Positions 1,302 to 20,000 of a stretch of DNA of 20,000 bases are shown piece after piece. The stretch is from an uncultured virus (IMG/VR IMGVR_UViG_3300037258_000725) (taxonomy: Duplodnaviria; Heunggongvirae; Uroviricota; Caudoviricetes): the IMG/VR virus record IMGVR_UViG_3300037258_000725; one strand, written 5' to 3'. The notes under the pieces were generated by a model that saw only the letters and a list, made by a program, of their open reading frames with translations, ran no database searches and was not told where the DNA came from. The number at the start of each line of letters is the position of its first letter. Within the stretch, counting starts at the first letter, position 1. The translations under genes and the position numbers were made by a program.

Positions 1302-1646
1302 TCAGGCCACGTTCGCTTCATAGAGCGCAACCACATCCCGGGGGATGCGGCCCCGCTCAGCCACATGGCGGCCATTCAGGGCGTGCTGGCCCGCTGGGGA
1401 CCTGATCCAGTCACGGATGCTGGCCGTCTCAGCCCTTGGGGTCCTGCGGCCGGCACCCCTCCTGGCGGTCTTCCGGGTGGCCCGGGCGACATTGGTCCAC
1501 CTCACCTGAGCGGCGGTGAACTCCTCGTCATGCTTCCCGCACAAGTCCACCTCGTACTCAGTGCCATCGATGGAGAATCGGCGGGTGAACTCTGCCTCAG
1601 TCCCATCGTCATCGCATGTTAGGAGGACATGAACCTTTTGAACCAT
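1302..1646 (-). CDS. lsr2: Lsr2 family nucleoid-associated protein / xenogeneic silencer
   Basis: MVQKVHVLLTCDDDG..FSIDGTEYEVDL N-terminal oligomerisation domain; IRDW...ERGRIP AT-hook-like C-terminus. Confidence 0.95.
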   Translation of the reverse strand: MVQKVHVLLTCDDDGTEAEFTRRFSIDGTEYEVDLCGKHDEEFTAAQVRWTNVARATRKTARRGAGRRTPRAETASIRDWIRSPAGQHALNGRHVAERGRIPRDVVALYEANVA

Positions 1647-1760: not shown

Positions 1761-1979
1761 ATGGCTACTGATGACCCAATCAGGGTTGGCGGCATGGGTG
1801 AGTGCTGCGTGACTGCTATTTACTCAGCCAAACCCGGCCGTGAGAACGACATGATCACCTGCACTGCCCACGATGGCATGGGTGAGCCTGTCCTCAGGTA
1901 CCGGAATGGGGCCTGGGAACGCCTCACAGAGCGCCTGGAGAACGGCGGGACGTTACGGAGGGGCCCAGCCAGGGGCTAG
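1761..1979 (+). CDS. Small hypothetical protein (72 aa), only plus-strand gene
   Basis: GGAGG RBS at about 1751-1755 then ATG 1761 (MATDDPIRVGG...); fills an otherwise empty gap; possible metal ligands CC...C..H. Confidence 0.7.
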   Translation: MATDDPIRVGGMGECCVTAIYSAKPGRENDMITCTAHDGMGEPVLRYRNGAWERLTERLENGGTLRRGPARG

Positions 1980-2515
1980 AACGCCAGCCTGCCCTGGACC
2001 GGCTGAGGCCGTGAGCCCCTGGGCTGAGGCAGCGCCACCCCATGCTCATAGTCCTGGACCGGGATGCCAACCTTCCGGGCATAGCTGGCACAGTCCCAGG
2101 TGCCGCCCTGGTTGACCGCACCCTTCCGGTAGAAGGCATGCCCCTCTTTGATCAGGCCCCGCCGCTTGCTGACCATGGCCTTGTTGCGGTAGTTCCCCTG
2201 GGCCCGGCAGATGGTGCCACCTCGGTAGCTCCTGGGCCGTGGCCCATGGCGGCACTCAGGACGGCAGGGAGCTCCCCAGTCGGCTGGGTGCCGGTCCTGC
2301 TCAACACAGAAGCCCTGGGCTTTCCTGGACTCCACCCACTCCCGGGCGAATCGGTCAACCCCATTCTCGTTGCGGTTATCCCCATGAACTACCACAAGGC
2401 TTTGGTAGTTGGCCAGAAGGTCATCTAATACTGACCAGACATGCTCTTTCAGCCTATAGTGACGGCTACCTGTCACTAACACCCATGTTGGCTCAGGCTG
2501 AGCACTGCCGATCAC
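1976..2515 (-). CDS. SLOG superfamily protein (YspA-like/DUF2493 type) with Cys/His insertion
   Basis: VLVTGSR, VVVHGD..GVDRFAREW, HPADW, GNYRNKAMV and GGTWDCASYARKVGIPV motifs; GTG start with AGGAGG RBS. Confidence 0.85.
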   Translation of the reverse strand: MIGSAQPEPTWVLVTGSRHYRLKEHVWSVLDDLLANYQSLVVVHGDNRNENGVDRFAREWVESRKAQGFCVEQDRHPADWGAPCRPECRHGPRPRSYRGGTICRAQGNYRNKAMVSKRRGLIKEGHAFYRKGAVNQGGTWDCASYARKVGIPVQDYEHGVALPQPRGSRPQPVQGRLAF

Positions 2516-2593: not shown

Positions 2594-2962
2594 TCACAGG
2601 TCTTCGGCCGCGGTTGCCCAGTCAGCGGGTAGCTGGGCATCGCAGCCAGTCTTCAGGCACAGCCAGCCAACGATCTCCTCATCCCCTGACCCGTCTGACT
2701 TCCTGGCCATGATCCGCTGCACGTTCCGGTGTTTGCATGGGCCAGGGGTCTTGTGGTCCGGGGCCTGGATCACGCCCGATGCATAGAGTGCGGCCAGTGG
2801 CTGGAATCCCTGATTGGCCTGAGCCAGGGCCTTGGCCTGAGCTCGCTTGGCCAGGCCCTTGCTGATGTGCTTGGCTGACTCCCTGATGCAGCCACAGACC
2901 ACGATGATGGCCACGATGACAGCGAACAGGTTATGGCTGGCAGCGGTCAGGAGTGCATTCAT
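2594..2962 (-). CDS. Hypothetical membrane-anchored protein with C-terminal Cys/His motif
   Basis: Start reassigned to ATG 2962 (ATGA overlap with upstream stop, GAGAGGGCGG RBS); hydrophobic LFAVIVAIIVVCG segment; CKH...CLKTGC. Confidence 0.7.
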   Translation of the reverse strand: MNALLTAASHNLFAVIVAIIVVCGCIRESAKHISKGLAKRAQAKALAQANQGFQPLAALYASGVIQAPDHKTPGPCKHRNVQRIMARKSDGSGDEEIVGWLCLKTGCDAQLPADWATAAEDL

Positions 2963-3396
2963 GATCCCGCCCTCTCTGGCACTTCGGTGATGACCCACCC
3001 GTGCCGGCTCAGGATGGCAGCGATCTGGGGCCGCTCATAGGACGGGCCCTTGATGATCTTGCCGTCCTGGTTGATCACCACGCCGCCGATCATCTTGGTC
3101 ATGTTGGAGCGGTGGATCTCGCGCATGATGGCATCCACTGGCAGGCCATAACTGACCATGGTCCCGGCCAGGACGTAGATCATGTCCCCCAGCGCGTCCG
3201 CGATCTCCACCAGGTCCCCGGCCTCAATCGCGGCACCGAGCTCCTTCAGTTCGCTCAGGAACATCGCCTCCCGGAGCTCTGCGGAGGAGAAGGTGTCCGG
3301 GACCTGGAGGGTGGGGTGGTCAGGTACCTGGAGGCCAGCCCGGCCATGGAACTCCAGGAGCATTCCCCCGAGGGTGCGGGCGGTCGGCATGGTCAT
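2959..3396 (-). CDS. MazG-like (all-alpha) nucleoside triphosphate pyrophosphohydrolase, DR2231/PRA-PH-like
   Basis: ELKEL...DLVEIADALGDMIYV acidic metal-binding motif; IHRSNMTK and DGKIIKGPSYERP family motifs. Confidence 0.9.
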   Translation of the reverse strand: MTMPTARTLGGMLLEFHGRAGLQVPDHPTLQVPDTFSSAELREAMFLSELKELGAAIEAGDLVEIADALGDMIYVLAGTMVSYGLPVDAIMREIHRSNMTKMIGGVVINQDGKIIKGPSYERPQIAAILSRHGWVITEVPERAGS

Positions 3397-3881: not shown

Positions 3882-4171
3882 CCACCAGCCTCCTGGGCCT
3901 GCCGGGCTTTGCGCCTGCGTTCCCGCTGGATGCCATAGGCCCGCATCGAGCGGATGAATGACTCATACTTGTGCTCGGAGCCAAACAACGTCCGTGCACA
4001 AAGGCCGCAGAACAGATTCGGGCCAGACCGCCGTGGCCGGAAGCACTCACCGCAGTAGTGGGTACCCTCACTGGGCTTGTGCTTGATCCGGTCAGGGTCT
4101 GTCCGGGGTGTGCCTGGCTGACCGGGGGCCTTGCCAGCATTGCTGGCCGTGCTCATCCTCAGCCGGGGCAT
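3878..4171 (-). CDS. Small basic C2C2 zinc-finger protein
   Basis: CGEC-x10-CGLC; TGATG overlap with upstream gene; start could alternatively be the second Met (MSTASN). Confidence 0.7.
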   Translation of the reverse strand: MPRLRMSTASNAGKAPGQPGTPRTDPDRIKHKPSEGTHYCGECFRPRRSGPNLFCGLCARTLFGSEHKYESFIRSMRAYGIQRERRRKARQAQEAGG

Positions 4172-4551
4172 CAGGCAGCACCCGCCTGGGCCTGGTGGTC
4201 CCCATCGCAGTCCCCCGCCAGGTTCGGGCAGGAGCAGGGCTGGCCGGCTGGGCCAGCGGTCAGGATGTCAGTGTGCGAGAACAGGGACCCGGCCTGGATG
4301 ACCTCCGGGGCTCTCCGGACCCGGGTGACAGTGACCTTGGGGCCCCGGGCCTGGGTGATCTGCTCAACCCAGGCGTCCTGGCTGTCCCGGGTCTGGTCAA
4401 TGGCCTGCTGCCGGCCCACGCCATGGTTGGCTCCCCCGCACACGCATTTGCAGACCCGGCATGTCGCGTCATAGCACCGCTTGGTGCAGGCGATGACCTC
4501 CTCGGCCCCGGAGTCTTCGTCCTTGAGGTGGACGGCGATGAGGGTGCTCAT
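4171..4551 (-). CDS. Cys-rich hypothetical phage protein
   Basis: CTKRCYDATCRVCKCVCGGANHG motif; GAGGAG RBS and ATGA overlap. Confidence 0.8.
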   Translation of the reverse strand: MSTLIAVHLKDEDSGAEEVIACTKRCYDATCRVCKCVCGGANHGVGRQQAIDQTRDSQDAWVEQITQARGPKVTVTRVRRAPEVIQAGSLFSHTDILTAGPAGQPCSCPNLAGDCDGDHQAQAGAA

Positions 4552-7821: not shown

Positions 7822-8322
7822 TCAGGCTGCGATGTCCCTGCGGACCATTTCCTTGCTCAGCCCGAACACCTCACCAATCTCAGCCAGGGAGCATCCCTGG
7901 TCGGCCAGGAACCGCTCCCAGGAGCGCCTGGTGGGCAGGTCACAGCCGGGGGAGCACTGCCTCCGGACAGTGGCGATGGCTGAGGCCTTGCGGGCCCGCT
8001 CCTTGGCTGCCTCGGCCGCGGCGGCCTGCTTGTCAGCCACAGCCTGGAGGGCAGCCTGGTGGGCTGCCAGCCACTGCCGGCCAGCCTCGGTCAGGGCCCA
8101 GATGACGGCCCGGCCGACACGGCGGGAGCCTGGGGTCCAGCCCTTCCGCTCCACCCGCCCAGCGGCCTCGTGGTAGCGCAGGGCCTCGCCGTAGCGGAGC
8201 AGGCTTGCCCCATCCCCGATGGCGGCCCGGAGCTCCGGAGTGGAGGCCTGGCCGGCCCGGGCGAGCTCAGCGAAGATCTGGGTTGCTCTGGTGGTGGCCA
8301 CTCGGCCGTGGGATTCGGTCAT
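7822..8322 (-). CDS. DNA-binding protein: N-terminal winged helix plus C-terminal sigma-70 region 4-like HTH
   Basis: Start reassigned to ATG 8322 (ATGA overlap, AGAGAGGA RBS); WALTEAGRQWL wHTH end; GCSLAEIGEVFGLSKEMVRRDI HTH. Confidence 0.75.
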   Translation of the reverse strand: MTESHGRVATTRATQIFAELARAGQASTPELRAAIGDGASLLRYGEALRYHEAAGRVERKGWTPGSRRVGRAVIWALTEAGRQWLAAHQAALQAVADKQAAAAEAAKERARKASAIATVRRQCSPGCDLPTRRSWERFLADQGCSLAEIGEVFGLSKEMVRRDIAA

Positions 8323-8804
8323 GCCTTGGTTCCTCTCTGGGATCGGCGGGGGTGGGCGGCCCGCCACTTCTCGCCCTCGGCCCGGGCACAGGTGGTGCAG
8401 ATGCAATGCTGGCCATCGCAGCACCGCAGGGCCCCGATGGAGAAGCCGCAGCACCAGCACTGCCTGGAGGGGTCCGGGTTGGGGCACTGGGGGCCATAGG
8501 CCCTGATGTCGATGGAGTGAGTTTCGCCCCGCTCCTCCTTGCGGAGGTGGTCAGCGCACACCTCGTACTCGCCGCCGTTGATGATGGCTGTGGGCATGCC
8601 GCCGGCCTCACCCAGCGGGTCAAGCTCATAGAGCGCATCCACGATCAGGGGCGGGTCCATGCCGCCAGTCAGGTAGCCACCATCGGGCCCGCGCCATGAG
8701 GGGTTTTCGTAGGTCACATGGTCACCAGGCTTGATGCCATTCCGCTCCTCCAGGGCCACGGGGGCGTCTGGGTCGTCGGGGTCGGTGCGGTAGAACTCGG
8801 TCAT
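8319..8804 (-). CDS. Hypothetical protein with acidic N-domain and Cys-rich C-domain
   Basis: ATGA overlap with the methylase stop; CP...CWCC....CCDGQHCICTTC. Confidence 0.7.
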   Translation of the reverse strand: MTEFYRTDPDDPDAPVALEERNGIKPGDHVTYENPSWRGPDGGYLTGGMDPPLIVDALYELDPLGEAGGMPTAIINGGEYEVCADHLRKEERGETHSIDIRAYGPQCPNPDPSRQCWCCGFSIGALRCCDGQHCICTTCARAEGEKWRAAHPRRSQRGTKA

Positions 8805-10705
8805 GCTGCTAGCTCCAGTTGGGTGTTGGTGATCACTTCGACCAGGGCGCTGATGAGCACCTCGGCCACGGGCGGGGTGACGGCATTGCCTAGCTGGCGG
8901 ATCTGTTCCCGCTGGTTGCCCAGCACGATGTAGTCCTCGCCAAAGGCCATGGCCGCGTGGATCTCAGGCACCTTGAGCATCCTGAACAGGATCTCGCTGG
9001 GGTCGATGATGAGGTTCCCGCGCTCATCAATGACCTTGTGCCAGTCCTGGCTGGCCATGCCGAAGCGCTGCAAGCTGGTCACTGCCCCCATGGGCCCGCC
9101 CACTGTCCGGGCCACCCCAGTGCCGTAGTAGGGGATGAGCAGGGACTGGTGCCCGGCCGAAGTCAGGGTCCGCATCGGCTCCCCCACCGGGGTGCACATC
9201 TCCGCTCCGCCCGCGTTGTTGCGCATGAGCAGGGGCGCGGGGATGGCCAGGGCATGGTTGGACCCATCGGCCACGATGGTGGCGGTGGGGTCGGTGACGG
9301 GAATGGAGCGGTTGCGGCCTGAGCGCAGCGGCAGCAGGATCGGCGGGCAGGCCATGCCATGGTGGCCACCTGAGGTGGTCAGGGTGGCCATCGGGTCAGC
9401 CACGGAGTGGCCGGTGTTCCCGTCCCGCATCTCCACCATGAACGGGGGGACCACCAGGGCATCGTTTTCCCGGGTGGTGCGGGCCCGGAATGGCTCGGTG
9501 GCCAGCATGGCCGTGTCATTCCAGGTGCCGCCGGCCGGGGCGATCAGTGGGGGACAGGCCAGGGCATGCTGGCTGGTGGCCATCTGGGTGGGCGCTGGCC
9601 GCCCCACCGGCCAGGTCCGCACCCCAGGGGTCCGCTCATAGGTGTTGCCCGCGGCGGCCAGCAGGATGGGCAGCCAGTGCCGCTGGGCCCCGGCCATGAT
9701 CCGGGCCATGGTCTTGGGGGCCAGCGGCCTGGGCCTGTCCCCGATCCTGGTACCCAGGTCACCCCAGTCGATGGCGGCGATGGCGGGCAGGACGTAGGGC
9801 TCCACCCGCTGGCCCTGGCAGGAGACCTTGGGGCACAGGTAGTCGTACTGCTGGTGGTAGCGGCCCATGGTGGTGCCTGGCTTGCGCCACACCTGGACAG
9901 CCTTGATGTTCTGCTCACAGGCGGGGCACCAGGCAGTTGGCCGCAGCCACTTGTCAAAGTCAGGATTGCGGCCCAGCTTCTCGTGCCAGTACACCAGGTA
10001 GAAGCGGTCCCGGGACTGGGGAGCTCTGGGGGTGCGCTGCGACTGGGCATGCATGGAGTTGAGGGCCACCAGGTGGGTCTTGTAACCCAGCCGCTCGATG
10101 GACCTGCGCCACTCCCCGAAGTGGACCCACTTGCACACATCGGTGACGTTCTCCACCACCCCGCACAGCACGGGCTGGCCCCTGGTCACCATGGCATCCA
10201 GGTACCGGGCCACATCCCACATCAGGGCCCGGGACCGCTCGGCTGCCTCCGGGGGCAGCGGCCCGTCGCCGTCGAACAGGCTGGCCTGGTGGCTGAAGGT
10301 CTGGGTCTTGCCCTGGCCCTGAGACCAGTACGGGCACTCCGGGGATGACCAGAAAATCATGCACGGGGGGATTCTGGTCAGGTCCATTTCCCTGATGTCG
10401 CCGTGCTTGTGCACGGCCTCGGGGAAGTTTCGCTCATGGGTTTCGATGGCCCTGGCCCAGTGGTTGGCCGCGGCCTTGATGAACACCCCGGGCACGGACT
10501 CAGCGCCCTGTGAGGAGCCGCCTCCGCCGCAGAACCAGTCATGGTAGGTGATGTCCCCGGTCAGGTCCCGCTGGGCGGGAGCCACTGTCCAGATGGCCTT
10601 GAGCACCTCTGTGAGGTTGCGGCGGGACAGCCGCTGCCAGGCCATCAGGTCAGCCGGGGTGGCTGGCATCCACTGGCCTGTTATCGGGTCCAGAACTGCG
10701 GGCAT
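8801..10705 (-). CDS. DNA (cytosine-5)-methyltransferase, phage type with long repetitive variable region
   Basis: Motif I DWFCGGGG, catalytic SPEC, ENV, QSRDR, and motif X QLGNAVTPP; AGGAGG RBS. Confidence 0.95.
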   Translation of the reverse strand: MPAVLDPITGQWMPATPADLMAWQRLSRRNLTEVLKAIWTVAPAQRDLTGDITYHDWFCGGGGSSQGAESVPGVFIKAAANHWARAIETHERNFPEAVHKHGDIREMDLTRIPPCMIFWSSPECPYWSQGQGKTQTFSHQASLFDGDGPLPPEAAERSRALMWDVARYLDAMVTRGQPVLCGVVENVTDVCKWVHFGEWRRSIERLGYKTHLVALNSMHAQSQRTPRAPQSRDRFYLVYWHEKLGRNPDFDKWLRPTAWCPACEQNIKAVQVWRKPGTTMGRYHQQYDYLCPKVSCQGQRVEPYVLPAIAAIDWGDLGTRIGDRPRPLAPKTMARIMAGAQRHWLPILLAAAGNTYERTPGVRTWPVGRPAPTQMATSQHALACPPLIAPAGGTWNDTAMLATEPFRARTTRENDALVVPPFMVEMRDGNTGHSVADPMATLTTSGGHHGMACPPILLPLRSGRNRSIPVTDPTATIVADGSNHALAIPAPLLMRNNAGGAEMCTPVGEPMRTLTSAGHQSLLIPYYGTGVARTVGGPMGAVTSLQRFGMASQDWHKVIDERGNLIIDPSEILFRMLKVPEIHAAMAFGEDYIVLGNQREQIRQLGNAVTPPVAEVLISALVEVITNTQLELAA

Positions 10706-10719
10706 AGGTCCCCCTCCTG

Positions 10720-13700
10720 TCAGGCTGCCTGGGCGGCAGGCTCGTCGTGTGGCTGAGCACGCTCATTGGCCAGCCGGGCGAGCTCGGCATTGATCTCCTC
10801 CACCAGTTGCCGGGCGGCGGCGAGCTCGGCGGCCTGGGCGAACTCACCAGACTCAGCCAGGCCCTTGCTGGCGTGCTCGATCTCCCGGCTGGCCCGCTCA
10901 ATGACGTGGCGGGCTTCAGTGACGTGGCCCTCCATGCCGGTGAGCCTGTTCTCCAGCCGGGTGATGAGCTTGCCGGTCCAGATCTCGGTCAGGTTCAGGC
11001 CCCTCAGTTCCCCGAACGGCATCTCATCCAGCACCAGGTCAGCCAGGACGCTGCCCTGCTGGGCCACCCAGAAGTGGGCCTTGACCTGGAATCCGCCCAG
11101 CCAGCCCAGGGGCACGAACCCGTGGGACTGGCCAGCCCGCACCCCAGGCTTGGCGTCGGAGTACTCCTGGTGCAGGACCTGGCGGAAGGCCTCATGGGCC
11201 TCGGCCCGGTCGGTGAACTCCTGGGCCCCGATGATGATGCGGAAGTCTTCCCCGGCCACGGGCTCACGGCGGCCCATGGCTTCCTGAACCCGGGCGATCA
11301 CGCTCTCCTGCCAGGTGATCTCGTCCTGGTTGGCTGTGACCGCATACCGGAATGACTCCAGGGTCCGCTCCCAGGCCCGTTCCGCCCGGTCCAGCCGCAC
11401 GAACTCTGAGTCGGCCACGGCCTTCTCCAGCAGGAGCGGGTTGTCGGTGGCCAGGGCCTGGATCTCGGAGAAGGACAGGGCCACATCCCCGATGTCCTTG
11501 ACTGACCTGGTGTCGAACCTGCCCCGGATCAACTGGCCGATGAAGGTTGCCTTGCGGGCCAGGGCCTGCCACATGTAGGCATCGAAGGAGCGGGAGGTGA
11601 TGTACCGCAGCAGGCGCACCTCAGCGTTGAGGTTCCCCTGCCGGATGGCCCGGCCGATCCGCTGGGCCACATCCGCTGGCCGCCAGGGGGCATCCAGTTC
11701 GTGCAGGGCCACCAGCCGGTCCTGGACATTGACCCCGACGCCCATCTTCTCGGTGGAGCCCACCAGGACGGCCACAGCCCCGGCCCGGCAGGCTGCGAAC
11801 AACTGGGCCTTGGCCCGGTCATTGGTGGCCTCATGCACGAACCTGACCCGGTTGGCCGGCATGCCCCGGAACACCAGTTCGGTCCGCAGCGTGTCGTAGA
11901 CGTTCCACTTCTCCGAGGGGGTGCCCAGGTCACAGAACACGAGTTGGAGGGAGCCTGGCACCAGTGAGTCTGGGTAGACGTGATCCCGGTTGGCCTGCCA
12001 GATCTCGTAGATCTTGCCGGCCGCGGCCTCGATCTTGCTGGGGGTGGTCTGGGGCTGGCCCACCAGTTCCATGCTGATGGCGGCTTTGCGGCCATCCAGG
12101 CAGACGTTGAGCATGTTGTCCTCGTCGGGCTTGACCGCCCGGCTGCGGATCTTCTCGGCCCGCTGCCCGAGCTCCAGCACAAAGTCCACAAGCTCCGGGG
12201 AGGGGTCCACGCTGACGATCTCAGAGTCCCGCTTGCCATCCTCGGGCCGGCAGGCGATCAGGGGGAGCTTCAGGTCCAGGTCCTCGGCCAGCTTCACGTC
12301 AGCGAAGATGAACCACATTTGCATGAGCTCGCTGATGCCGGTGAACTCAGCGAACCTGGCCTTGAGCCGGAACGCGGTGCCGCCCTCGGGGGCGAGCTCA
12401 ACCTTGGTGACCACTTCACCGAACGTGGCCGCCCAGGAGTCGAAGATCAGGACAGCCGCGTCTTCCAGCACATCTGGCCGCAGGTAGCGGCACATGACGT
12501 GGGCCTCAGTGATGGAGTTGGCGATGGGGGTGGCGGTGGCAAAGGTGGCGATCCGCCTGCCCTGCCGCCGCCGCAGCCAGTGCAGCTTCATGTCCAGATC
12601 GGAGGCCCGCTGGGAGCCATCAATGGCCGCGTCGGGGATGGCGGAGGGGGTGCGCAGATTCTTGAACAGGTGGGCCTCATCCACCACCAGGTAGTCACAG
12701 CCCATGCCCTCGAAGCAGATGCCCTTGTCCCGGGGCAGCCGCTTGACCTTCTCGATGAGCCGGTTCTCAGCGTTCCACTTGGTCCGCTCCAGCCGCTTGA
12801 GGGTCAGCCCCTCAGCGTCCTGGGCGTTGTCAATCCACTCCTCCAGCAGGGCGATTTCCCGGTTCAGGTAGTCCTCCTGGGCTTCCCGGGTCATCCCGAT
12901 CCGCTCGAACGCGGACATGGAGATCACCACGGCATCCCAGTCCCCGGTGGCGCACCGGGCGATGAACCGCCGCCGCTTGATGGAGGAGTCCAGGTCTTCC
13001 CGCTGCCCCAGCAGGACCCTGGCCTGGGGGTAGAGGGCCATCCATTCACGCGAGAACTGCTCCAGCATGTGGTTGGGGACCACCACGCAGGCCTTGGAGA
13101 TCAGGCCCAGGCGGCGCATCTCCATCACCCCGGCCACCATTTCCAGGGTCTTGCCCGCTCCCACCTCATGGGCCAGGAGCGCGGTGGGCTCATGCACCAT
13201 CCGGGCAATCGCCGGGTACTGGTGGGTGTGGACCTTGGCTTTCCAGTCCACGTTCATGCCCGGCAGGCTCATCCTGGCCGCGTCGTAGTCGTCGTAGGAG
13301 CGGACCACCAGGCCGTTGAACATGTCGTTGTAGGTCCTGGCCAGCCGGGCTGAGCGGGCCGGGTCTCCCCAGGCCCAGTCAGCGAACCTGGCCTTGATCA
13401 GGTCAGCCTTGGCATTGGCGGCCACGGTCTCATCCAGGTTGAGCACCTGGCGCTCACTGCCGTCAACCATGATGGTGTCGCGGACCTGGATGGGGTGCTG
13501 TTGCAAGATCGCAGCGGCCAGGTCAACGGCATTGCGCCGGCCGGTGCCATAGGTGGAGGTGGCCAGCACTGAGCGATGGTCACCCTTGACGGCCCAGATC
13601 TGGCCGCCCGGGTGCTCAACCTTCAGGTGCTCGTCATCCAGCAGTTCCCTCAGGAAGGCCTGGATGAACGAGACACCGATCCAGGAGGCCCCCATGCGGG

Positions 13701-16059
13701 CATCAATCTCACCTGGGGTCTTGTCCCGGGGGACAACCTCACGCAAGGCTCGCACGTTGACCTCAAAAGCAGGGTCGGTGCGGGCCGCGGCCTCAGCCAC
13801 CTGGAGCTTGCGGCGCACCTTGCCGGACAGGTACTGGGCTGCCGGGACCAGGCTGCCGGTCGGGACCTCATCGGGCCCTGGCTTGGCAGGCTTGCCGGTG
13901 ATGTCACTGAGGTTAACGTCAAGCCCTGACAGTGCTGAGATGTCCGCAGCCGCATGAGCCAGCAGGGCTTCCTGGTCACCTTCTGGGTCAGGTGGCACCT
14001 CATACACCAGGCTGGCCAGCCTGTCCCGGGCGTCTTCTGGGGTGGTGCCCAGCAGGCGGGCGATCTCCTCCAGGTCCACCTGGCCATGGGTGTCCAGGCA
14101 GATGGTCAGCGCGTCATCAGGGGTGTCGGCCCCCAGCCGGGGGGTCCTGGGTGCGGTCACGCGGGTGGTGAAGATCGGGGCCCTGGTGGCGGTCTGGGTC
14201 TCTGGGCTGAAGGTCTCCAGGCCCAGCACCAGCGGGTAGTAGGGGTCCTTGCGGAACCCTCCCTGGGGTGGCCGGATCTGGGCCAGGCGGTCTTCCATCC
14301 TGACCGGCAGGTGGCAGGAGTGGCACTGGGCCAGCAGAACCCCGGCCTGCTGCCACACCGGGTTGCCGGGGGAGCCATCCCTGTTGGGCTTGCCATGGGT
14401 GGTGGCCTTGACGTACTCGCCGCAGGGCTCACACGTCCCGCCGTACCGGCCAGTTCGCCGGTAGCTGAACCTGTTGATGGGCCCGTAGCTGGCGACGTAG
14501 GTGGTGTAGGCCTCACCCAGCATGCCCATCTGGGCCAGGATCTCTGGCGTGTCCTCAGCATCGGCGGCCTCAGCGGCCAGCAGGTCCCGGGCCGCATCCC
14601 GCAGCCGCAGCAGGGCGGCCAGTTCACCAGCCTGCTCGGCGGGCACCTCATAGCGCACTGGCTGGCCGTAGTCGATGATGGTGAACCCGGTCCCTGGGGT
14701 GCCCTGAATGAAGCCGTCCGGGTGCCCGGTCTCGAGACTTTCATCGGGCTCAGGCAGGGCTTCCCGGGCCCTGGCCCAGGTCAGGCCCTCCATCCTGGCC
14801 TCGGCCACGATGTTCTCCAGGGCCTCAGCCAGGGCCTCATTCAGGGCCGCGCGGGTGTCCTTGAACTCCACCGTGAGGTCATCGGCCCGCCACATCCCGT
14901 GGCAGCGGAACTTCCCCAGCACCTGGGCCCGGTGGCGGGTGAACCAGTCGGAGACGATGAGCTCCTGGTCATCCACTTCAATGGCCCTGGCCCGCTCCCA
15001 GTCCTCCCCGGCTGGCTCAGCCCCGCGGTCCCGCCGCCGCAGCACCACCAGGTCAGTGACCACGCTGGTGCCCGCGGCGGCCTGGTGGGCCCCGGAAGGC
15101 AGCCTGACCGCACCCAGGACATCGGCCACCTTGCTGATGGCCCGCCTGGACTCCGGGTTGGCACCGTCCATGGTGTACCGGGAGGTGAGGAACAGCCCGA
15201 TGCCACCAGGCCGCAGCAGGTGCATGGCCTTGAGGATGAAGTGGTTGTGGATGGAGTGCCGGCGGTCTGGGTTGTACCTGGCATCAGGCAGTTGCAGGTC
15301 CCCGAATGGCACATTGGCCACGGCCAGGTCAAAAGACTCCTCAGCGAACTTGCTGTCCGCGAAGCTCTCGCGGCGGATGTCAGCCTGGGGGTAGAGGGCC
15401 TGGGCGATCTGGGCGGTCAGCGGGTCAAGTTCCACCCCGGTCATGCGGGCTCCCGGGGGAGCCAGGCCGATGAAGTTGCCTGACCCGCAGCCTGGCTCGA
15501 TGACCTTGCCTGAGGTGAACCCCAGCAGGGCCGCGGCCTGCCAGATCTGCTGGACGAACGCGGCATCGGTGTAGTGCGCGTTCAGGGTGGAGCGGGCGGC
15601 GGCGCGGCGCTCCTCCTCGCTGGTCAGGTCCAGGAGCTCGGCGGCCACCTTCTGGGCCCAGGCAGGCTGGTTCCTGGTGTCCCACACCTCAGGGATGGCA
15701 CCCCAGCCAGACCAGCGGGCCAGGATGGCCTGCTCTGCGGCGGTGGCGGCCCGGTTCTCATCCTGGATCTCCCGCAAGGTGACCAGCGCGGCCAGGTTGG
15801 CCCCGGCCCGGGCCACTGACCCGGTGGGGGCCAGGTCACCCTGGCCATCTGGCCGGAAGCTGGGCCCGGCAGGCCTGGGGGCCGGCGGTGGCGGCAGTGG
15901 CGGCGGGGTGGCTGGCTTCAGGATGGGGACCTGGAAAGCCGGGATCTGGGGCCCCTGGGCCTGCACCTCGGGGTCGGTGTCGTTCAGGAACGCCAGCAAC
16001 GACCCTTGCAGGGGATTGGTCTGGAGCTTGCCACGGCGGCGCCGGGTGGTGATGGCCAA
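10720..16059 (-). CDS. DarB-like N6-adenine-type methyltransferase / SF2 (SNF2-like) helicase fusion
   Basis: IEPGCGSGNF SAM motif, NVPF catalytic motif, Walker A HEVGAGKT, DEAH, TATP, QRIGRAIRQGN motif VI, C-terminal coiled coil; TTG start with GAGGAG RBS. Confidence 0.92.
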   Translation of the reverse strand: MAITTRRRRGKLQTNPLQGSLLAFLNDTDPEVQAQGPQIPAFQVPILKPATPPPLPPPPAPRPAGPSFRPDGQGDLAPTGSVARAGANLAALVTLREIQDENRAATAAEQAILARWSGWGAIPEVWDTRNQPAWAQKVAAELLDLTSEEERRAAARSTLNAHYTDAAFVQQIWQAAALLGFTSGKVIEPGCGSGNFIGLAPPGARMTGVELDPLTAQIAQALYPQADIRRESFADSKFAEESFDLAVANVPFGDLQLPDARYNPDRRHSIHNHFILKAMHLLRPGGIGLFLTSRYTMDGANPESRRAISKVADVLGAVRLPSGAHQAAAGTSVVTDLVVLRRRDRGAEPAGEDWERARAIEVDDQELIVSDWFTRHRAQVLGKFRCHGMWRADDLTVEFKDTRAALNEALAEALENIVAEARMEGLTWARAREALPEPDESLETGHPDGFIQGTPGTGFTIIDYGQPVRYEVPAEQAGELAALLRLRDAARDLLAAEAADAEDTPEILAQMGMLGEAYTTYVASYGPINRFSYRRTGRYGGTCEPCGEYVKATTHGKPNRDGSPGNPVWQQAGVLLAQCHSCHLPVRMEDRLAQIRPPQGGFRKDPYYPLVLGLETFSPETQTATRAPIFTTRVTAPRTPRLGADTPDDALTICLDTHGQVDLEEIARLLGTTPEDARDRLASLVYEVPPDPEGDQEALLAHAAADISALSGLDVNLSDITGKPAKPGPDEVPTGSLVPAAQYLSGKVRRKLQVAEAAARTDPAFEVNVRALREVVPRDKTPGEIDARMGASWIGVSFIQAFLRELLDDEHLKVEHPGGQIWAVKGDHRSVLATSTYGTGRRNAVDLAAAILQQHPIQVRDTIMVDGSERQVLNLDETVAANAKADLIKARFADWAWGDPARSARLARTYNDMFNGLVVRSYDDYDAARMSLPGMNVDWKAKVHTHQYPAIARMVHEPTALLAHEVGAGKTLEMVAGVMEMRRLGLISKACVVVPNHMLEQFSREWMALYPQARVLLGQREDLDSSIKRRRFIARCATGDWDAVVISMSAFERIGMTREAQEDYLNREIALLEEWIDNAQDAEGLTLKRLERTKWNAENRLIEKVKRLPRDKGICFEGMGCDYLVVDEAHLFKNLRTPSAIPDAAIDGSQRASDLDMKLHWLRRRQGRRIATFATATPIANSITEAHVMCRYLRPDVLEDAAVLIFDSWAATFGEVVTKVELAPEGGTAFRLKARFAEFTGISELMQMWFIFADVKLAEDLDLKLPLIACRPEDGKRDSEIVSVDPSPELVDFVLELGQRAEKIRSRAVKPDEDNMLNVCLDGRKAAISMELVGQPQTTPSKIEAAAGKIYEIWQANRDHVYPDSLVPGSLQLVFCDLGTPSEKWNVYDTLRTELVFRGMPANRVRFVHEATNDRAKAQLFAACRAGAVAVLVGSTEKMGVGVNVQDRLVALHELDAPWRPADVAQRIGRAIRQGNLNAEVRLLRYITSRSFDAYMWQALARKATFIGQLIRGRFDTRSVKDIGDVALSFSEIQALATDNPLLLEKAVADSEFVRLDRAERAWERTLESFRYAVTANQDEITWQESVIARVQEAMGRREPVAGEDFRIIIGAQEFTDRAEAHEAFRQVLHQEYSDAKPGVRAGQSHGFVPLGWLGGFQVKAHFWVAQQGSVLADLVLDEMPFGELRGLNLTEIWTGKLITRLENRLTGMEGHVTEARHVIERASREIEHASKGLAESGEFAQAAELAAARQLVEEINAELARLANERAQPHDEPAAQAA

Positions 16060-16143
16060 CGGATCTCCTCTGGGGTGTTACCCCGGTGGGGCCCTAGCCG
16101 TGACTGCCCTGCCTGGCCGTCACGCTCCGGGTGATCAGCGTGC

Positions 16144-16172
16144 CATTACGTAGTCAATATGACTACGTAATG
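16144..16172. promoter_or_regulatory. Perfect 13-bp inverted repeat (operator or 5' hairpin)
   Basis: CATTACGTAGTCA-ATA-TGACTACGTAATG, AT-rich, immediately downstream of a predicted -10 box. Confidence 0.8.
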
Positions 16173-16177
16173 AAGCA

Positions 16178-16206
16178 ACCCTATCTGAGTATGGTGCAAG
16201 CGGCAA
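16178..16206 (-). promoter_or_regulatory. Predicted promoter of the methyltransferase operon
   Basis: TTGCCG (16206-16201), 17-nt spacer, TAGGGT (16183-16178). Confidence 0.6.
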
Positions 16207-16210
16207 CCTC

Positions 16211-16546
16211 CTATTGCGGTGTGTCTGCCTGGGCCCAGGGGCCCAGCACCTCCAGCCAGGGAGCATGGCAGGTGGCGCATATGAAGCCGTCCGGGGGAGC
16301 CCCGCCGCAGGTCGGGCAGGGGATGTCCAGGTTCGGGTGCAGCAGGACCCAGGCTGGCATCCCGAACGCCCGGACGATCCGGCAGAAGGTCTGGGAGAGG
16401 CCGCGCCGCTGTCCGTGTTCCAGGAACGTGACATTGCTGGCTGCGATCCCGGCCGTTTCCGCAAGCTGTTTGTGAGTCCAGTTCCTCTGTGTGCGGAAAC
16501 GGCGGATGTTGCCCGCGACGATCTCATTCGGGTCGTCGTCTGGCAC
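16211..16546 (-). CDS. XRE-family HTH regulator with C-terminal zinc ribbon
   Basis: NIRRFRTQRNWTHKQLAETAGIAASNVTFLEHG HTH; CPTC-x8-CATC; GTG start with GGGGAGG RBS. Confidence 0.88.
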   Translation of the reverse strand: MPDDDPNEIVAGNIRRFRTQRNWTHKQLAETAGIAASNVTFLEHGQRRGLSQTFCRIVRAFGMPAWVLLHPNLDIPCPTCGGAPPDGFICATCHAPWLEVLGPWAQADTPQ

Positions 16547-16565
16547 GGCCTCCCCCTGGTCATCC

Positions 16566-17750
16566 TCAGGCAGCCTTGGCCTCGGGCTGGGCGACTGCCA
16601 GCGAGTATGGCTGCACGAGGTGACAGTATGTCACCTCGCCCTCACGGTGCGCAGTGAAGACGAAGGCATTGAACGGCTCCACCAGGACACCAATGTGAAT
16701 CCGCTCATCATCGATGGCATGCAGGGCCTTGATCACCAGCAGGGGGTTGAGCTTGAACCTGATCTCAGGCCCATCCTCGCCGTAGTCCGCGCAGATAGCC
16801 TCATCTGCCACGTCCTCGCCGTTCTCCCCGCCCTCAGCCAGGACCAGGATCTCCCCTGGCTGGATGGTGAGCTCCATGCCATCCCCGGGCTTGGTGCAGA
16901 CCAGGGCCGCCCGCTCGGCCGCGCCCAGCAGGTCCACCCGGTCAATGATGGCCGCACCCTGCCGGGGCTTGTTCAGCAAGCTGGAGTAGGGCAGGTACTG
17001 CCCGGCCGTGACCAGCGTGGTGAACTCACGGCCATCACTGCACTGGATGCCCAGGCCCTTGGGCTGGCCCTCGGCGCCGGTCATGATGGTGACCTCCACC
17101 TGGGAATCCTCGGCCAGGGCCCGCACCATGTGGTCCATGATGGTGGCGGGCACCATCACCGAAGGCGGGGCCTGGCTGGTGACGGGGGCGGTGTCCCGCA
17201 CCGCATGCCCAAGCTGGGTGGTGTCGGTGGAAGTGAACAGCATCTCACCGTCCCCGAACTCCATGAACAGGGCGGCATGGATCTCGGTGGCATCCCCGGC
17301 CGCGGTGGCGACCCGGGTCACGGCGCTGCCCAGGTCCCTGGCCATGATGGAGATGGCGGGCCCGGTGATCTCAGGCAGGGACGGGTAGTCATCCTCCCCG
17401 ATCATGGCCAGGGTGAACGTCGCCCCACCGCACACGATCTGGACCCGGGTGCCCAGCCGGGTGAACATCACCGGCTTGCCTGCGGGCAGTTTGCCCAGCA
17501 CCTGGACCAGCTTGGCCCCGGGGATGAACAGGACCCCAGGCTCCGCCACCATGGCGGGCACGGAGGCCCTGGCCGACACTGTGTAGTCGAACGCTGCCAG
17601 CCGCACCTCCTCACCCTCGGCGGTGAGCTTCATGGCATGCATCACTGGCAGGGTGCCAGCCCCCTTGGGCAGGGCCAGGCTGGCCCACTTGCCAGCGGCC
17701 AGCAACTTGGCTGGGTCGGAAACGGTGAACTCGGTCGGGCTCGCGGTCAT
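16566..17750 (-). CDS. dnaN: DNA polymerase III beta sliding clamp homolog
   Basis: 394 aa; LAAFDY, PGVLFIPGAKL, EDDYPSLP, STD, GQYLPY, AAERAALV, LNP..VIKAL features along the three-domain clamp; appears divergent from typical chromosomal DnaN. Confidence 0.88.
   Translation of the reverse strand: MTASPTEFTVSDPAKLLAAGKWASLALPKGAGTLPVMHAMKLTAEGEEVRLAAFDYTVSARASVPAMVAEPGVLFIPGAKLVQVLGKLPAGKPVMFTRLGTRVQIVCGGATFTLAMIGEDDYPSLPEITGPAISIMARDLGSAVTRVATAAGDATEIHAALFMEFGDGEMLFTSTDTTQLGHAVRDTAPVTSQAPPSVMVPATIMDHMVRALAEDSQVEVTIMTGAEGQPKGLGIQCSDGREFTTLVTAGQYLPYSSLLNKPRQGAAIIDRVDLLGAAERAALVCTKPGDGMELTIQPGEILVLAEGGENGEDVADEAICADYGEDGPEIRFKLNPLLVIKALHAIDDERIHIGVLVEPFNAFVFTAHREGEVTYCHLVQPYSLAVAQPEAKAA
16616..16638. 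repeat. Perfect 10-bp inverted repeat inside the dnaN 3' end, 70 bp upstream of the XRE gene
   Basis: CGAGGTGACA-GTA-TGTCACCTCG. Confidence 0.7.
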
Positions 17751-17993: not shown

Positions 17994-18197
17994 TTATCCG
18001 CGAGTCCGGTGGCGGGCGGTCAGCCCGAACACCAGCGACACGGAGAACAGGATGAGCAGGGGCACGAACGCCAGGACCGCGTAATAGCCGATCCGGTTCG
18101 CCACCGTGAACGCCACGAGCGTGTCAATCAGGAGCGCGAGGAGGAGCGCGGTCGTGGTGGTGTCCCCGCGCCCCGGGCGGCTAGAACGGGGGCTCAT
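17994..18197 (-). CDS. Small two-helix membrane protein
   Basis: 67 aa with two hydrophobic segments; overlaps the ssb end. Confidence 0.65.
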
Positions 18198-18675
18198 CGG
18201 TGAACTCCCCGCCGCTGGCGTCGGCCGCCCACGGGTCCTCGGCCGGGCGGCTGCTGGCCGGAGCCTGGCCGCCTCCGTTGCCGCCGGACGGCTGGCCGCC
18301 GCCTGTCGAGCGGGAGGACTTGGTGACCTTGGCGGAGGCCCACTTGAGGGAGGGCCCCACCTCGTCTACCTCGATCTCGTAGACGGTCCGCTTCTCGCCC
18401 TCTTTGGTCTCGTAGGACCGCTGGCGCAGCCTGCCCTGGACAACGATCCGCATGCCGCGCTGGAGCGACTCACAGACGTTCTCAGCCATCTGGGCCCAGG
18501 CGTTGCAGGCCAGGAACAGCCCCTCGCCGTCCTTCCACTCCCCGGTGGCGCTGTCCCGGTAGCGGGGGGTGGCGGCCACGCGGAAGTTGGACACGGCCTT
18601 GCCGCTGGGGGTGTACCTCAGTTGCGGGTCATCGACCAGGTTCCCCGCGATGGTGATGCTGGTGTCTCCAGCCAT
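18181..18675 (-). CDS. ssb: Single-stranded DNA-binding protein
   Basis: [37 protein letters not shown], acidic tail DEPPF. Confidence 0.98.
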
Positions 18676-18719: not shown

Positions 18720-20000
18720 TCAGATGTGTGCCATGTCAACGAAGCGTGAATAGTGCCCCTGGAATGCGGTAGTGATGGTGGCGGTGGGCCCGTTGCGGTG
18801 CTTGGCCACAATGAAGTCTGCTTCGCCAGCCCGGGGGGACTCCCGCTCGTAGGCGTCCTCCCGGTGCAGCAGGAGCACAATGTCCGTGTCCTGCTCGACG
18901 CTGCCGGACTCCCTCAGGTCAGCCAGCAGGGGCCTGTGGTCAGCGCGGGACTCTGGGCCCCGGTTCAGTTGCGCGGCGAAGATCACCGGCACGTCGAGCT
19001 CCTTGGCCAGGAGCTTGAGGCCACGGGACTGGTCTGAGACCTCAACCTGCCGGTTCTCAGACCGGCGCTTGGCTGTGGGGGGTGAGCCCAGCAGTTGCAG
19101 GTAGTCCAGGAAGATCGCAGCCGGGCGCTGGCCGGCCCGGGCAAGCTCCTCGTTCTGGAGCTTGATGCCCGGCACGTCGATGTACGGGTTGTCGATCAGG
19201 TGGAACTGGGCTGAGGCCATCCGGCTCCAGTGCTTCTCGATCCGGGTCCAGTCCACCTCGGTGAGAGCATCCCCGCCCCGGACCAGGTTGTGCAGCGGCA
19301 CATGGGCCTCGGCCGCGATCATCTTGCGGATAAGCTCACCGCGGTGCATCTCCAGGGAGTGGAACTGCACCCCCGCCCGCTGCCTGAACGCCATGTGCCG
19401 GGCCAGGTCCAGGAGCAGGGTGGACTTGCCCAGGGCGGGCCGGGCACCAATGCAGACAAGCTGGCCGCCGCGCAGCCCCCCGCCCAGCAGGGCATCCAGG
19501 TCAGCGAACCCGGTGGCCAGCCCGGTGACTTCCCGGTTGTGGGTCAGGTCGTCATAGACCCGCAGCATCATGTCCATCCAGGCCTCAATGGCCTCACCCT
19601 CGGCATGGTCAGCCAGAAGCTGGTCAAGCTCCATGCGGGTGTGGTGGACAAGCCCCTCAGCCAGGTCGAGCTCCTTGGAGTAGCCCTTGCTCATGCCCCG
19701 GGTGCAGATCTCGATGAGGCCCCGCAAGATGGCCATGCACCGCACGATCCGGGCGTAGTAGACGGCGTTGGCCATGCTGGGCACCGCGGCCAGGCAGGTG
19801 TGCAGGTAGGGCGCTCCCCCGACCTTGGCGATCTCCCCCTGGCTGGTCAGGTAGGCGGACACGGCCACTGGGTCGGTGGGCTTGCCAGCCTCATGCAGGG
19901 CGCCGATGGCCTCAGCGATGACCTGGTGGGCAGGCCGCCAGTAGTCCAGGGGCTTGATCACCTTGGCCACCTCGGAGATGGCCAGCTTGGAGCCCAGCAG
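18720..20000 (-). CDS. dnaB: Replicative DNA helicase DnaB (5' end outside window)
   Basis: Frame open to the window edge ([11 protein letters not shown]...); [11 protein letters not shown]alker [33 protein letters not shown]. Confidence 0.97.

Follow-up and report, generated by a model that had tools for sequence, protein, structure and literature searches.

The window, the whole 20,000-nucleotide stretch of DNA analysed here, carries a replication/early module that belongs to an actinobacterial (pro)phage-like element of a high-GC soil bacterium. The minus strand carries, in order, a DnaB-type helicase, SSB, two small ORFs, a DnaN-like clamp, an HTH regulator, a DarB-like protein and a C5 methyltransferase (Table 1), a layout that matches gp67-gp85 of Arthrobacter phage Zucker and the IMG/VR contig L031. 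A sequence-only reading of the window had proposed that the element may load its own clamp and recruit its methyltransferases to it through short clamp-binding-like peptides, four of which it listed. These genes and all four peptides lie where that reading had placed them and, as it stated, a single gene, that of the HTH regulator, separates the upstream clamp gene from the DarB-like gene.

Table 1. Genes and peptide-bearing features of the window, with the matches or data that identify them
Feature	Position	Strand	Basis
DnaB-type replicative helicase	18720..19970	-	Pfam DnaB_C 8.5e-78, DnaB 5.3e-17; phrog_19
SSB, acidic tip with Pro-Phe end	18181..18675	-	Pfam SSB 9.2e-29; translation
Divergent DnaN-like beta sliding clamp, 394 aa, remodelled partner pocket	16566..17750	-	Pfam, three beta-clamp domains; phrog_947 2e-46
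Small HTH_3 regulator, between clamp and DarB-like gene	16211..16546	-	Pfam HTH_3 7.6e-06
DarB-like N6-adenine methyltransferase fused to SNF2 helicase, 1779 aa	10720..16059	-	phrog_10089 'DarB-like antirestriction' 1167.6 bits
QGSLLAF, in Arg-rich, Pro-rich N-terminal tail of DarB-like protein	15988..16008	-	translation
C5 cytosine DNA methyltransferase, actinophage family	8801..10705	-	Pfam DNA_methylase 7.1e-18; phrog_116 4.9e-50
Catalytic-loop insertion, lineage-specific, with QASLF (10274-10288) then acidic stretch	10238..10306 (limits approximate)	-	alignments; low-pLDDT coil
Cys-rich 126-aa protein with internal QAGSLF (4279-4296)	4171..4551	-	translation
YspA/SLOG-family protein, Pro-rich C-terminal extension ending QGRLAF (1979-1996)	1976..2515	-	Pfam YAcAr 5.5e-11

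The DarB-like gene starts with TTG behind a GGAG-type ribosome site, and its product matches Pfam SNF2-rel_dom, Helicase_C and Methyltransf_11/25; its homologs carry the source name 'N12 class adenine-specific DNA methylase', the closest named relatives being on actinobacterial plasmids (43-48% identity). The model of the C5 methyltransferase resembles M.HaeIII/M.HhaI (E 1e-10), and the enzyme is about 40% identical to methyltransferases encoded by Gordonia, Mycobacterium and Arthrobacter phages. The clamp scores 110.7 bits against TIGR00663, below the cut-off of 137.65, and its best non-self relative is 32-33% identical; the AF2 model (pLDDT 94.5) has a TM of 0.88 to mycobacterial clamps.

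Within the 634-aa C5 methyltransferase frame, QASLF occupies residues 140-144, 16 residues past the catalytic Cys, while QGSLLAF is residues 18-24 of the DarB-like protein and QGRLAF forms the final six residues of the SLOG protein. When the 25 proteins of the window (6510 aa) were compared with 500 shuffles, the strict QL[SD]LF was absent, Q.[SD]LF was observed once versus 0.048 expected, and Q..L.[FL] twice versus 2.3 expected. The union of the four ad hoc patterns behind the sequence-only reading gave 4 matches versus 0.52 expected, for a pattern derived from its own matches. By these counts the window alone is weak evidence. Judged from relatives, three of the four peptides are nevertheless clearly non-random, the exception being QAGSLF: family searches (Pfam and PHROG among them) gave no family for the Cys-rich protein and homolog searches gave no homolog, so that it is a candidate, and unproven, member of the peptide-bearing set.

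Conservation, which the sequence-only reading had put forward as the check on its motifs, is most extensive in the C5 methyltransferase. Strict Q.[SD]LF is present in 88 of the 120 best homologs (114 parsed, 6 unparsed and 3 without), the Q, L and F each reach at least 90% conservation across an alignment of 104 rows, and Q-x-x-L-[FLM] occupies the loop site in 116 of 147 unique metagenome and IMG/VR loci (87 by pattern parsing plus all 29 regex-unparsed rows, read individually). Another peptide stands at this site in 24 of the 147, mostly x-L-P-G-[LM]-E without Gln, and His replaces Gln in 7; such loss counts against a pure clamp-binding motif, which would be expected to retain Gln. The insertion is found in seven cultured actinophage or prophage enzymes (Kita gp64, Floral gp65, prophiT36-2a gp14, Che9c gp65, Dori gp72, Boomer gp72 and Zucker gp77) and is missing from four proteobacterial-phage homologs (RcapNL, Medea1, Vibrio K468a and Ralstonia YO041_1) that are otherwise intact methyltransferases, and thus is not required for C5 catalysis as such. 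AF2, given 104 sequences, draws the loop as coil of pLDDT about 50 inside a confidently folded domain, with values that drop under 50 over model residues 115-122 and 130-133 (the peptide spans 128-132), and the peptide is modelled as flexible and exposed, not buried. The flanks, G-E-x-L-P-D-x-A-A, are likewise conserved in the alignments; linear motifs seldom show this, and it might point to a structured or DNA-facing element. Because the peptide lies inside the catalytic loop, clamp binding and catalysis might be mutually exclusive.

The DarB-like tails tell a similar story on a smaller scale. Q.[STDE]L[FL] is present, at the same place, in all three phage-context copies, those that adjoin this C5 methyltransferase family: QGSLLAF in the window, QHSLF in L031 and QGTLF in L009, with per-tail shuffle probabilities of 0.014, 0.0002 and 0.0025. 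The three tails are otherwise unalignable, and none of 20,000 joint shuffles gave the motif in all of them. Among 37 other long N-terminal tails of database DarB-like homologs the motif did not occur (0.67 expected), and P-L-F-[GD]-E-D occurred in four (0.33 expected). The window peptide also shares a Q-G-S-L-L-x-hydrophobic-L pattern with a loop variant of many C5 methyltransferases.

The nearest homolog of the SLOG protein, P0391 (54% identity), terminates in Q-A-R-L-F, and the C-terminal peptide is missing from the other 10 of 11 homologs (8 from databases and 2 from loci). Both QGRLAF and QGSLLAF have an extra residue before the last Phe (L-A-F) where relatives have L-F; the C5 methyltransferase peptide of the window retains the ordinary S-L-F form. 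When the window is pooled with the related loci (976 unique GC3-filtered ORFs in all), Q.[SDE]L[FL] falls within the last 12 residues eight times versus 0.4 +/- 0.6 in shuffles, an approximately 20-fold enrichment, with the reversed motif and an internal window both giving 0; the hexapeptide form is not enriched at these C-termini (2 observed versus 2.1 expected). Seven of the ten carriers of the penta- or hexapeptide are DNA-modifying enzymes or similar-looking proteins. Three of the seven belong to known families, namely DpdA (PF23859, 3e-86) and two methyltransferases, one of the D12 Dam type and one N6_N4. The other four are NPPF-motif methyltransferase-like proteins; two of these, other than L159 and L160, were scanned against Pfam and gave sub-threshold matches only.

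The recurrence of one peptide class, Q-x-[S/D]-L-F or a near variant followed by acidic residues, in three unrelated proteins and at the C-terminal ends of further DNA-modifying enzymes points to a single common partner, which we infer to be a clamp. We tentatively propose that the peptides dock the methyltransferases on the beta clamp, so that nascent phage DNA would be modified at once. The module would supply a helicase, SSB, its own sliding clamp, a small regulator and two DNA methyltransferases, both of which would protect the element's DNA from restriction. These enzymes and the nearby SLOG protein would each present a clamp-binding-type peptide, in a flexible loop or tail, to the hydrophobic pocket of a beta clamp remaining on freshly replicated DNA, and modification would follow immediately, as it does for DNMT1 through PCNA in animals. 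Conservation of the peptides in relatives suggests, short of proof, that DNA methylation in these phages takes place immediately behind the replication fork. In most relatives the partner clamp would have to be the host's; the element's own remodelled clamp is a further candidate here.

The bacterial clamp-binding consensus is given as QL(S/D)LF (PMC9690074), and the QESLF of M. smegmatis DinB1 is described as a beta-clamp motif and was deleted as such in that actinobacterial host (PMC9346131). Like those of known beta-clamp clients, the window peptides are Q-x-S/D-L-F sequences in flexible tails or loops and are conserved among orthologs, and the host group here, as for DinB1, is Actinobacteria. 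Unlike the known clients, which are polymerases and repair proteins, the carriers are phage DNA methyltransferases and other DNA-modifying enzymes; none of the window peptides has the canonical Leu at position 2, one site lies in a catalytic loop, and binding is predicted. A search of one literature collection found no description of a bacterial or phage methyltransferase with a clamp-binding motif. The parallel with DNMT1-PCNA is one of analogy, not homology. Both involve a C5 cytosine methyltransferase with a clamp-docking peptide (putative here) methylating behind the fork (for DNMT1, PMC9690074). The clamp here is a beta clamp, the motif is of a different class from the PIP box, the DNMT1 peptide is in an N-terminal regulatory region, and the purpose would be restriction protection where that of DNMT1 is epigenetic inheritance.

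It is possible, though rather less probable, that the peptides are conserved for other roles and resemble the clamp-binding motif by convergence. The loop could serve DNA recognition, base flipping or active-site autoinhibition, and the DarB-like tail could be a signal for another partner, such as one for virion packaging; phage P1 DarB is a virion protein whose action is on DNA after injection. The window protein shares domain architecture and PHROG family (phrog_10089) with P1 DarB, and differs in the clamp-type peptide of its tail. Convergence would agree with the position inside the catalytic loop, the conserved flanks, the Gln-less L-P-G-[LM] peptide that substitutes in about a fifth of loci, and the other short motifs of database DarB-like tails. 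It does not readily account for the same peptide class on unrelated proteins and C-termini, for insertion-less homologs that are still intact methyltransferases, or for the absence of any packing for the loop in AF2 despite a deep alignment. We give very little weight to the idea that the peptides poison the host clamp, displacing host polymerases and repair factors. Pocket-binding replication blockers do exist, the toxin SocB being an example mentioned in PMC9690074, and several proteins of one element bear the peptide, but the carriers are large DNA-acting enzymes, the enrichment is on DNA-modifying enzymes, and a small protein would be a simpler dedicated inhibitor. Chance, in the sense of short degenerate motifs chosen post hoc, is a highly improbable account of the whole set: it would fit the window counts, where apart from the post hoc union only Q.[SD]LF exceeds expectation and the strict consensus is missing, and it stands for QAGSLF, but conservation in the C5 methyltransferases, the joint shuffles of the DarB-like tails and the C-terminal enrichment with its empty controls rule it out for the C5, DarB-like and SLOG peptides.

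The element's own clamp as a dedicated tether, loaded on element DNA and bound by peptides adapted to its remodelled pocket, appears unlikely. Clamp and methyltransferase genes do occur together in the window, L031 and Zucker. The window clamp differs from the family consensus at 7/7 key pocket positions, the only one of 100 family members to do so, and the two L-A-F peptides could reflect adaptation to such a pocket. Complex prediction for this clamp with methyltransferase residues 106-152 returned 'weak support', with a median score of 0.48 (runs 0.48, 0.68 and 0.07) versus 0.00 for the best of three controls, the runs sharing at least 27% of contacts and partner pLDDT being at least 35. Among 157 solved complexes 116 passed the mark, as did 2 of 215 mismatched pairs; at scores of 0.60 or less only 18 of the 157 pass, together with both passing mismatches, and since similar complexes have been solved (8dj6, 8djq, 8dk9), the pass may reflect structures already known to the predictor. 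Against a dedicated tether, the motif is not tied to the presence of a clamp gene in the neighbourhood. Such a gene is encoded on the same strand, no more than 10 kb away, in 16 of the 147 methyltransferase loci (directly adjoining in L101, L098 and L089), and the motif is found in 14 of these 16 compared with 102 of the 131 others. Similarly, the methyltransferase family occurs in 117 Gordonia phage records and the motif is present in Gordonia phages, but the 78 phage records that match the clamp include no Gordonia phage. The window methyltransferase has the ordinary S-L-F, and the window shows neither a clamp loader nor a polymerase, so that even the clamp would presumably still have to work with host proteins. 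The conservation check put forward by the sequence-only reading comes out in its favour for the C5 methyltransferase, the phage-context DarB-like tails and the SLOG C-terminus, while its choice of the element's own clamp is not supported; among the findings it named as adverse, a degenerate pocket is partly borne out by the seven changes, and burial of the motif is not what the loop model shows.

Docking on a clamp behind the fork would have functional parallels. Published mobile-element methyltransferases likewise act in step with replication and shield entering DNA from restriction, and a possible role of the sliding clamp as go-between is raised by their authors; in the portion of that account drawn on here the association is with DNA polymerase I and a clamp-binding motif goes unmentioned, and the likeness to the window enzymes is drawn at the level of function. 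T4 gp45, in late transcription, and phage Mu MuC are described as cases in which a phage protein ties a non-replicative process to the clamp, the process being transcription there and DNA modification here.

The Zucker stretch (ON645346) encodes the same module, comprising SSB, helicase, methyltransferase, HTH, sliding clamp, C5 methyltransferase and MazG, with the HTH-clamp pairing of the window recurring as gp73-gp74. Its proteins are only 26-37% identical to those of the window, and the DarB-like gene is not in gp67-gp85. The loop insertion of its C5 methyltransferase holds Q-P-D-F-F and, unlike the window clamp, the Zucker clamp retains the usual C-terminal pocket residues. Related Arthrobacter phages likewise have a clamp gene.

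The four peptides that the sequence-only reading singled out as candidate clamp-binding motifs translate exactly as it had given them. No strict QL[SD]LF is present in the window; QASLF, in the C5 methyltransferase, is its only Q.[SD]LF, QGRLAF, in the SLOG protein, fits the hexapeptide class Q..L.F, and QGSLLAF (DarB-like tail) and QAGSLF (Cys-rich protein) are loose fits only to the clamp-motif classes. The form Q-x-S/D-L-F corresponds to the beta-clamp motif QESLF deleted from M. smegmatis DinB1, as described in the available text of PMC9346131, and the pattern of the window peptides fits the clamp-binding consensus QL(S/D)LF given in the available part of PMC9690074. The motifs appear to be set in exposed, flexible segments, namely a loop in the predicted model of the C5 methyltransferase and, judging from sequence, the DarB-like tail and the SLOG C-terminus.

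Coding in the window (62-70% G+C) lies nearly all on the minus strand, and its gene products were assigned to a 71,842-bp contig. An exact match to 40 bases at the window's edge turned up in neither viral nor metagenome contigs. No tRNA gene was detected in the window, and no structural (virion) genes lie within it. Over its full length, the C5 methyltransferase shares about 40% identity with enzymes of cultured Gordonia, Mycobacterium and Arthrobacter phages and matches 321 phage records; a relative is carried by 100 of 109 candidate IMG/VR stretches, which was counted toward a phage-type reading. A related locus, L031 (the same contig as the IMG/VR locus L094, 159.8 kb), has the window's gene order of DnaB, SSB, DnaN, DarB-like gene and C5 methyltransferase. 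Like the window, the Arthrobacter phage Zucker has SSB, helicase, methyltransferase, HTH, sliding clamp, C5 methyltransferase and MazG (gp85) in the same order. The closest named relatives of the DarB-like protein, at 43-48% identity, are on actinobacterial plasmids, which would speak against a simple phage assignment. Weighing the phage-type homologs and the gene order against these plasmid relatives, we take the window to be the replication/early module of a phage or prophage of actinobacteria, with a phage-plasmid nature of the element as the alternative reading.

Genes and peptides of the window, in transcription order of the genes
Feature	Coordinates	Strand	Remark
DnaB helicase	18720-19970	-	first in transcription order
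SSB	18181-18675	-	after DnaB, then two small ORFs
DnaN-like clamp	16566-17750	-	three Pfam domains
HTH_3 regulator	16211-16546	-	between clamp and DarB-like gene
DarB-like methyltransferase/SNF2 helicase	10720-16059	-	1779 aa
C5 cytosine methyltransferase	8801-10705	-	634 aa
Small genes after C5 methyltransferase			sigma-region-4-like HTH, PadR, YdjM, MazG, YspA/SLOG, Lsr2
ORF with Cys-rich C-terminus	8319-8804	-	161 aa
ORF with sigma region 4-like HTH	7822-8487	-	221 aa
MazG	2959-3396	-	accompanies module
YspA/SLOG protein	1976-2515	-	
Lsr2	1302-1646	-	accompanies module
402-aa ORF	34-1242	-	3' end of operon
QGSLLAF	15988-16008	-	DarB-like tail
QASLF	10274-10288	-	C5 methyltransferase
QAGSLF	4279-4296	-	Cys-rich protein
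QGRLAF	1979-1996	-	SLOG protein

The C5 enzyme has the Pfam domain DNA_methylase (PF00145, 7.1e-18), the catalytic Pro-Cys (as P-E-C) and E-N-V in its translation, and a model of M.HaeIII/M.HhaI fold (Foldseek matches to 1dct and 1fjx at E 1e-10). QASLF lies 16 residues beyond the catalytic Cys, in an insertion that we take to fall between the Pro-Cys motif and the conserved Arg-containing motif after the catalytic loop of known C5 enzymes. Conservation of the peptides among homologs, on which the sequence-only reading would have its proposal judged, holds for this enzyme. Of the best 120 among 3300 homologs, 88 have strict Q.[SD]LF, the rest being mostly near variants, with 3 lacking the motif and 6 unparsed; in a 104-row alignment, conservation reaches at least 90% at each of Q, L and F. 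Among 147 unique methyltransferase loci from metagenomes and IMG/VR, 87 have Q..LF; another 29, unparsed by the regular expression, all read Q-[GYP]-[SD]-L-[FLM], usually as Q-G-S/D-L-L-x-L-L/Y followed by an acidic run, giving a Q-type motif in 116 of 147. A different loop peptide, mainly x-L-P-G-[LM]-E, is found in 24 loci, and His replaces the Gln in 7.

The insertion is present in Kita gp64, Floral gp65, prophiT36-2a gp14, Che9c gp65, Dori gp72, Boomer gp72 and Zucker gp77. It is absent from the homologs of Rhodobacter phage RcapNL, Pseudomonas phage Medea1, Vibrio phage K468a and Ralstonia phage YO041_1, where the catalytic motif runs directly into the next conserved motif. By these alignments the insertion is specific to one methyltransferase lineage, and the core C5 enzyme does not need it, since the four proteobacterial-phage homologs are without one. 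In an AF2 model built from a deep alignment (mean pLDDT 72.3), confidence is high for the fold of the catalytic domain, and the loop is coil with a pLDDT of about 50, falling below 50 across S-L-F-D, so that the peptide is predicted to be exposed rather than buried. Two homologs of the enzyme, P0165 (1025 aa) and P0209 (969 aa), carry a Hint/intein domain (PF13403).

The DarB-like protein matches phrog_10089 at 1167.6 bits and Pfam Methyltransf_11/25, SNF2-rel_dom and Helicase_C, and joins an N6-adenine methyltransferase domain to a downstream SNF2-type helicase in a single chain; P1 DarB is packaged into virions and protects injected DNA. The N-terminal tail of the window protein, Arg/Pro-rich and by sequence unaligned among homologs, is not conserved as a whole, since database and plasmid alignments start near residue 67. 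All three DarB-like genes found beside this C5 methyltransferase family have Q-x-[ST]-L-[FL] in the tail, after an Arg-rich stretch and before acidic residues: QGSLL(AF) in the window, QHSLF in L031 and QGTLF in a further related locus, L009. The shuffle probabilities for the individual tails are 0.014, 0.0002 and 0.0025, respectively, and the motif occurred jointly in all three in 0 of 20000 shuffles. Conservation stops at this phage context, however, as the motif is absent from all 37 long tails among 119 database homologs (0.67 expected). The window tail, Q-G-S-L-L-A-F-L, has the pattern of the Q-G-S-L-L-D-L-L loop variant of many C5 methyltransferases; therefore, both methyltransferases carry the same peptide class.

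Other short motifs occur in DarB-like homologs. P-L-F-[GD]-E-D is found in 4 of the 37 long tails versus 0.33 expected; the plasmid-type proteins P0012, P0018, P0036 and P0071 begin Arg-rich, continue with G-[DE]-P-L-F-[GD]-E-D-W-W and have repeated L-F-E-D-type motifs. Another group, from Micromonospora-type plasmids (P0055, P0078, P0081, P0109 and P0118), has an N-terminal DnaG-primase-like domain (PF08275) and a conserved linker module with Q-L-L-L-D-F, at which position shorter homologs have G-Q-L-L-L-G. We rejected these last two peptides as clamp motifs; they belong to a longer conserved module and are absent from the window.

The SLOG protein has a Pro-rich C-terminal extension of which QGRLAF forms the final residues. 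In its closest homolog, P0391 (54% identity), the C-terminus is Q-A-R-L-F, but the other 10 of 11 homologs, eight from databases and two from related loci, lack such a C-terminal peptide. No homolog of the Cys-rich protein was found in the 160 loci, phages or plasmids, so QAGSLF may be due to chance.

Terminal peptides of this kind recur in the related loci. Among 976 unique stop-bounded, GC3-filtered ORFs from the 160 loci and the window, Q.[SDE]L[FL] falls within the last 12 residues in 8 cases versus 0.4 +/- 0.6 in shuffles; the reversed pentapeptide was found in none (0.4 in shuffles), and the pentapeptide itself in none when an internal window of the ORFs was scanned. The hexapeptide Q..L.[FL] was ruled out as an enriched C-terminal form (2 found, 2.1 in shuffles). 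The ten carriers of terminal peptides include a DpdA-family protein (PF23859, 3e-86), a D12 Dam-type methyltransferase and an N6_N4 methyltransferase. Four further carriers are related N-P-P-F-motif proteins ending in the canonical QLDLF, methyltransferase-like by sub-threshold Pfam matches only in both of the two scanned, and the remaining three have no assigned family. In a crude regular-expression census, 13 of 966 ORFs were amino-methyltransferases and the motif was present in 2 of these 13 versus 8 of the 953 others (Fisher p 0.007), a result that is only indicative because the census misses known methyltransferases.

The window clamp itself is predicted to have a full three-domain fold (AF2 pLDDT 94.5, pTM 0.90), with a TM of 0.88 to the mycobacterial clamps 8dj6, 8djq and 5ah2; some of the matched mycobacterial clamps were solved with ImuB, DnaE1 or DinX peptides. 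Among 1.84 billion representatives, the closest non-self relative shares 32-33% identity with the window clamp, which scores 110.7 bits against TIGR00663, the cellular DnaN equivalog, below the cut-off of 137.65. A degenerate pocket, which the sequence-only reading had said would count against it, is in part what we observe: all seven columns that we assign to the partner-binding pocket by E. coli residue numbering are off consensus (R177T, Y178T, R179Q, P253L, Y338L, M380Q and R383S). The window clamp is the sole member with all seven changed among 100 aligned, of which 42 are unchanged at these columns and the next most deviant has four changes. The nearest relatives of the clamp have odd C-termini too. 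When the clamp protein was compared with genome contigs, the lone match, in L003, was weak and unrelated (38% over 53 residues).

Structure prediction of the window clamp with C5 methyltransferase residues 106-152, in three runs with three controls, gave 'weak support', with a median of 0.48 (runs 0.48, 0.68 and 0.07) and a best control of 0.00. Solved complexes pass the mark in 116 of 157 cases and mismatches in 2 of 215, but at scores of 0.60 or below only 18 of the 157 solved complexes passed, together with both passing mismatches. The runs agreed in 27% or more of their contacts, and the partner pLDDT was 35 or higher. The pass may reflect memory, because clamp-peptide complexes are already solved.

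The observation behind the sequence-only reading is confirmed, and its interpretation is partly supported. We tentatively favor, as quite possible, a reading in which a sliding clamp trailing the fork serves as the docking site for the methyltransferases and probably also for the SLOG protein, so that phage DNA would be modified as soon as it is made. That this clamp is the element's own, as originally proposed, is improbable. Of the 160 loci, 20 (16 of the 147 unique ones) have a same-strand clamp gene no more than 10 kb away, and in three (L101, L098 and L089) it directly adjoins the methyltransferase. Dependence of the methyltransferase motif on such a gene is ruled out, the motif being present in 14 of the 16 loci that have one and in 102 of the 131 that do not. 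Gordonia accounts for 117 phage records with the methyltransferase and for none of the 78 phage records matched by the window clamp in tblastn. In most relatives, the partner clamp would necessarily be the host's. A somewhat unlikely explanation, and the main rival to clamp docking, has the loop insertion acting as a DNA-facing or regulatory element and the tail peptide meant for some other partner; in favor of this are the conservation of the residues flanking the loop peptide, its variants without Gln and its location in the catalytic loop.

Very improbable, in our judgment, is an orthogonal clamp-client pair by which phage DNA would be distinguished from that of the host. Here a private clamp with a uniquely remodelled pocket, loaded onto the element's replicating DNA, would bind the element's own variant peptides (the L-A-F forms), and methylation would be licensed on clamp-marked phage DNA only. 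Because the docking peptide is part of the catalytic loop, the methyltransferase would be turned on or off by clamp binding itself, and the host chromosome would be spared from methylation, which would be relevant in actinomycetes that restrict methylated DNA. The window clamp, with all key pocket positions changed, is a separate curiosity that could reveal rewiring of clamp-client specificity.

Under the favored docking on a sliding clamp, the closest functional analogue is DNMT1-PCNA (available part of PMC9690074). For methylation linked to replication by a mobile element, the nearest precedent in bacteria is M.EcoGIX/M.BceJIII, which associate with polymerase I, with the clamp named as a possible go-between in the available text of PMC7736820. 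In the literature searched, no paper describes a clamp-binding motif on a DNA methyltransferase of bacteria or phages; the proposed clients, DNA methyltransferases of phage, would be a variation on the known clamp-client class. If the peptides do bind a clamp, DNA-modifying enzymes of a large actinobacterial phage group would form a new class of beta-clamp clients, and the replication-coupled DNA modification of animals by DNMT1-PCNA would gain a bacterial-virus counterpart. Docking would also account for the protection of phage DNA before restriction enzymes meet it and for the place of methyltransferase genes in replication modules. The idea is testable in M. smegmatis with Che9c, Dori and Boomer, and with the Arthrobacter phage Zucker, which has its own clamp.

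Several minor features were also observed. The 402-aa ORF matches nothing in Pfam, PHROGs or NCBIfam, and the 160 related loci contain no homolog of it. The two ORFs at 8319-8804 and 7822-8487 overlap by 169 bases as listed, and the real start of the downstream gene is probably later. In L013 (3-1007, plus strand), the DpdA-family protein lies directly upstream of the C5 methyltransferase and has a Q-G-E-L-F end and an acidic tail. In Zucker, the second methyltransferase, gp72 (L175, 4193-5092), lies just upstream of the HTH-clamp pair and has the C-terminus P-S-L-L-D-A-L-D-A-S, a Gln-less form of the helical variant.
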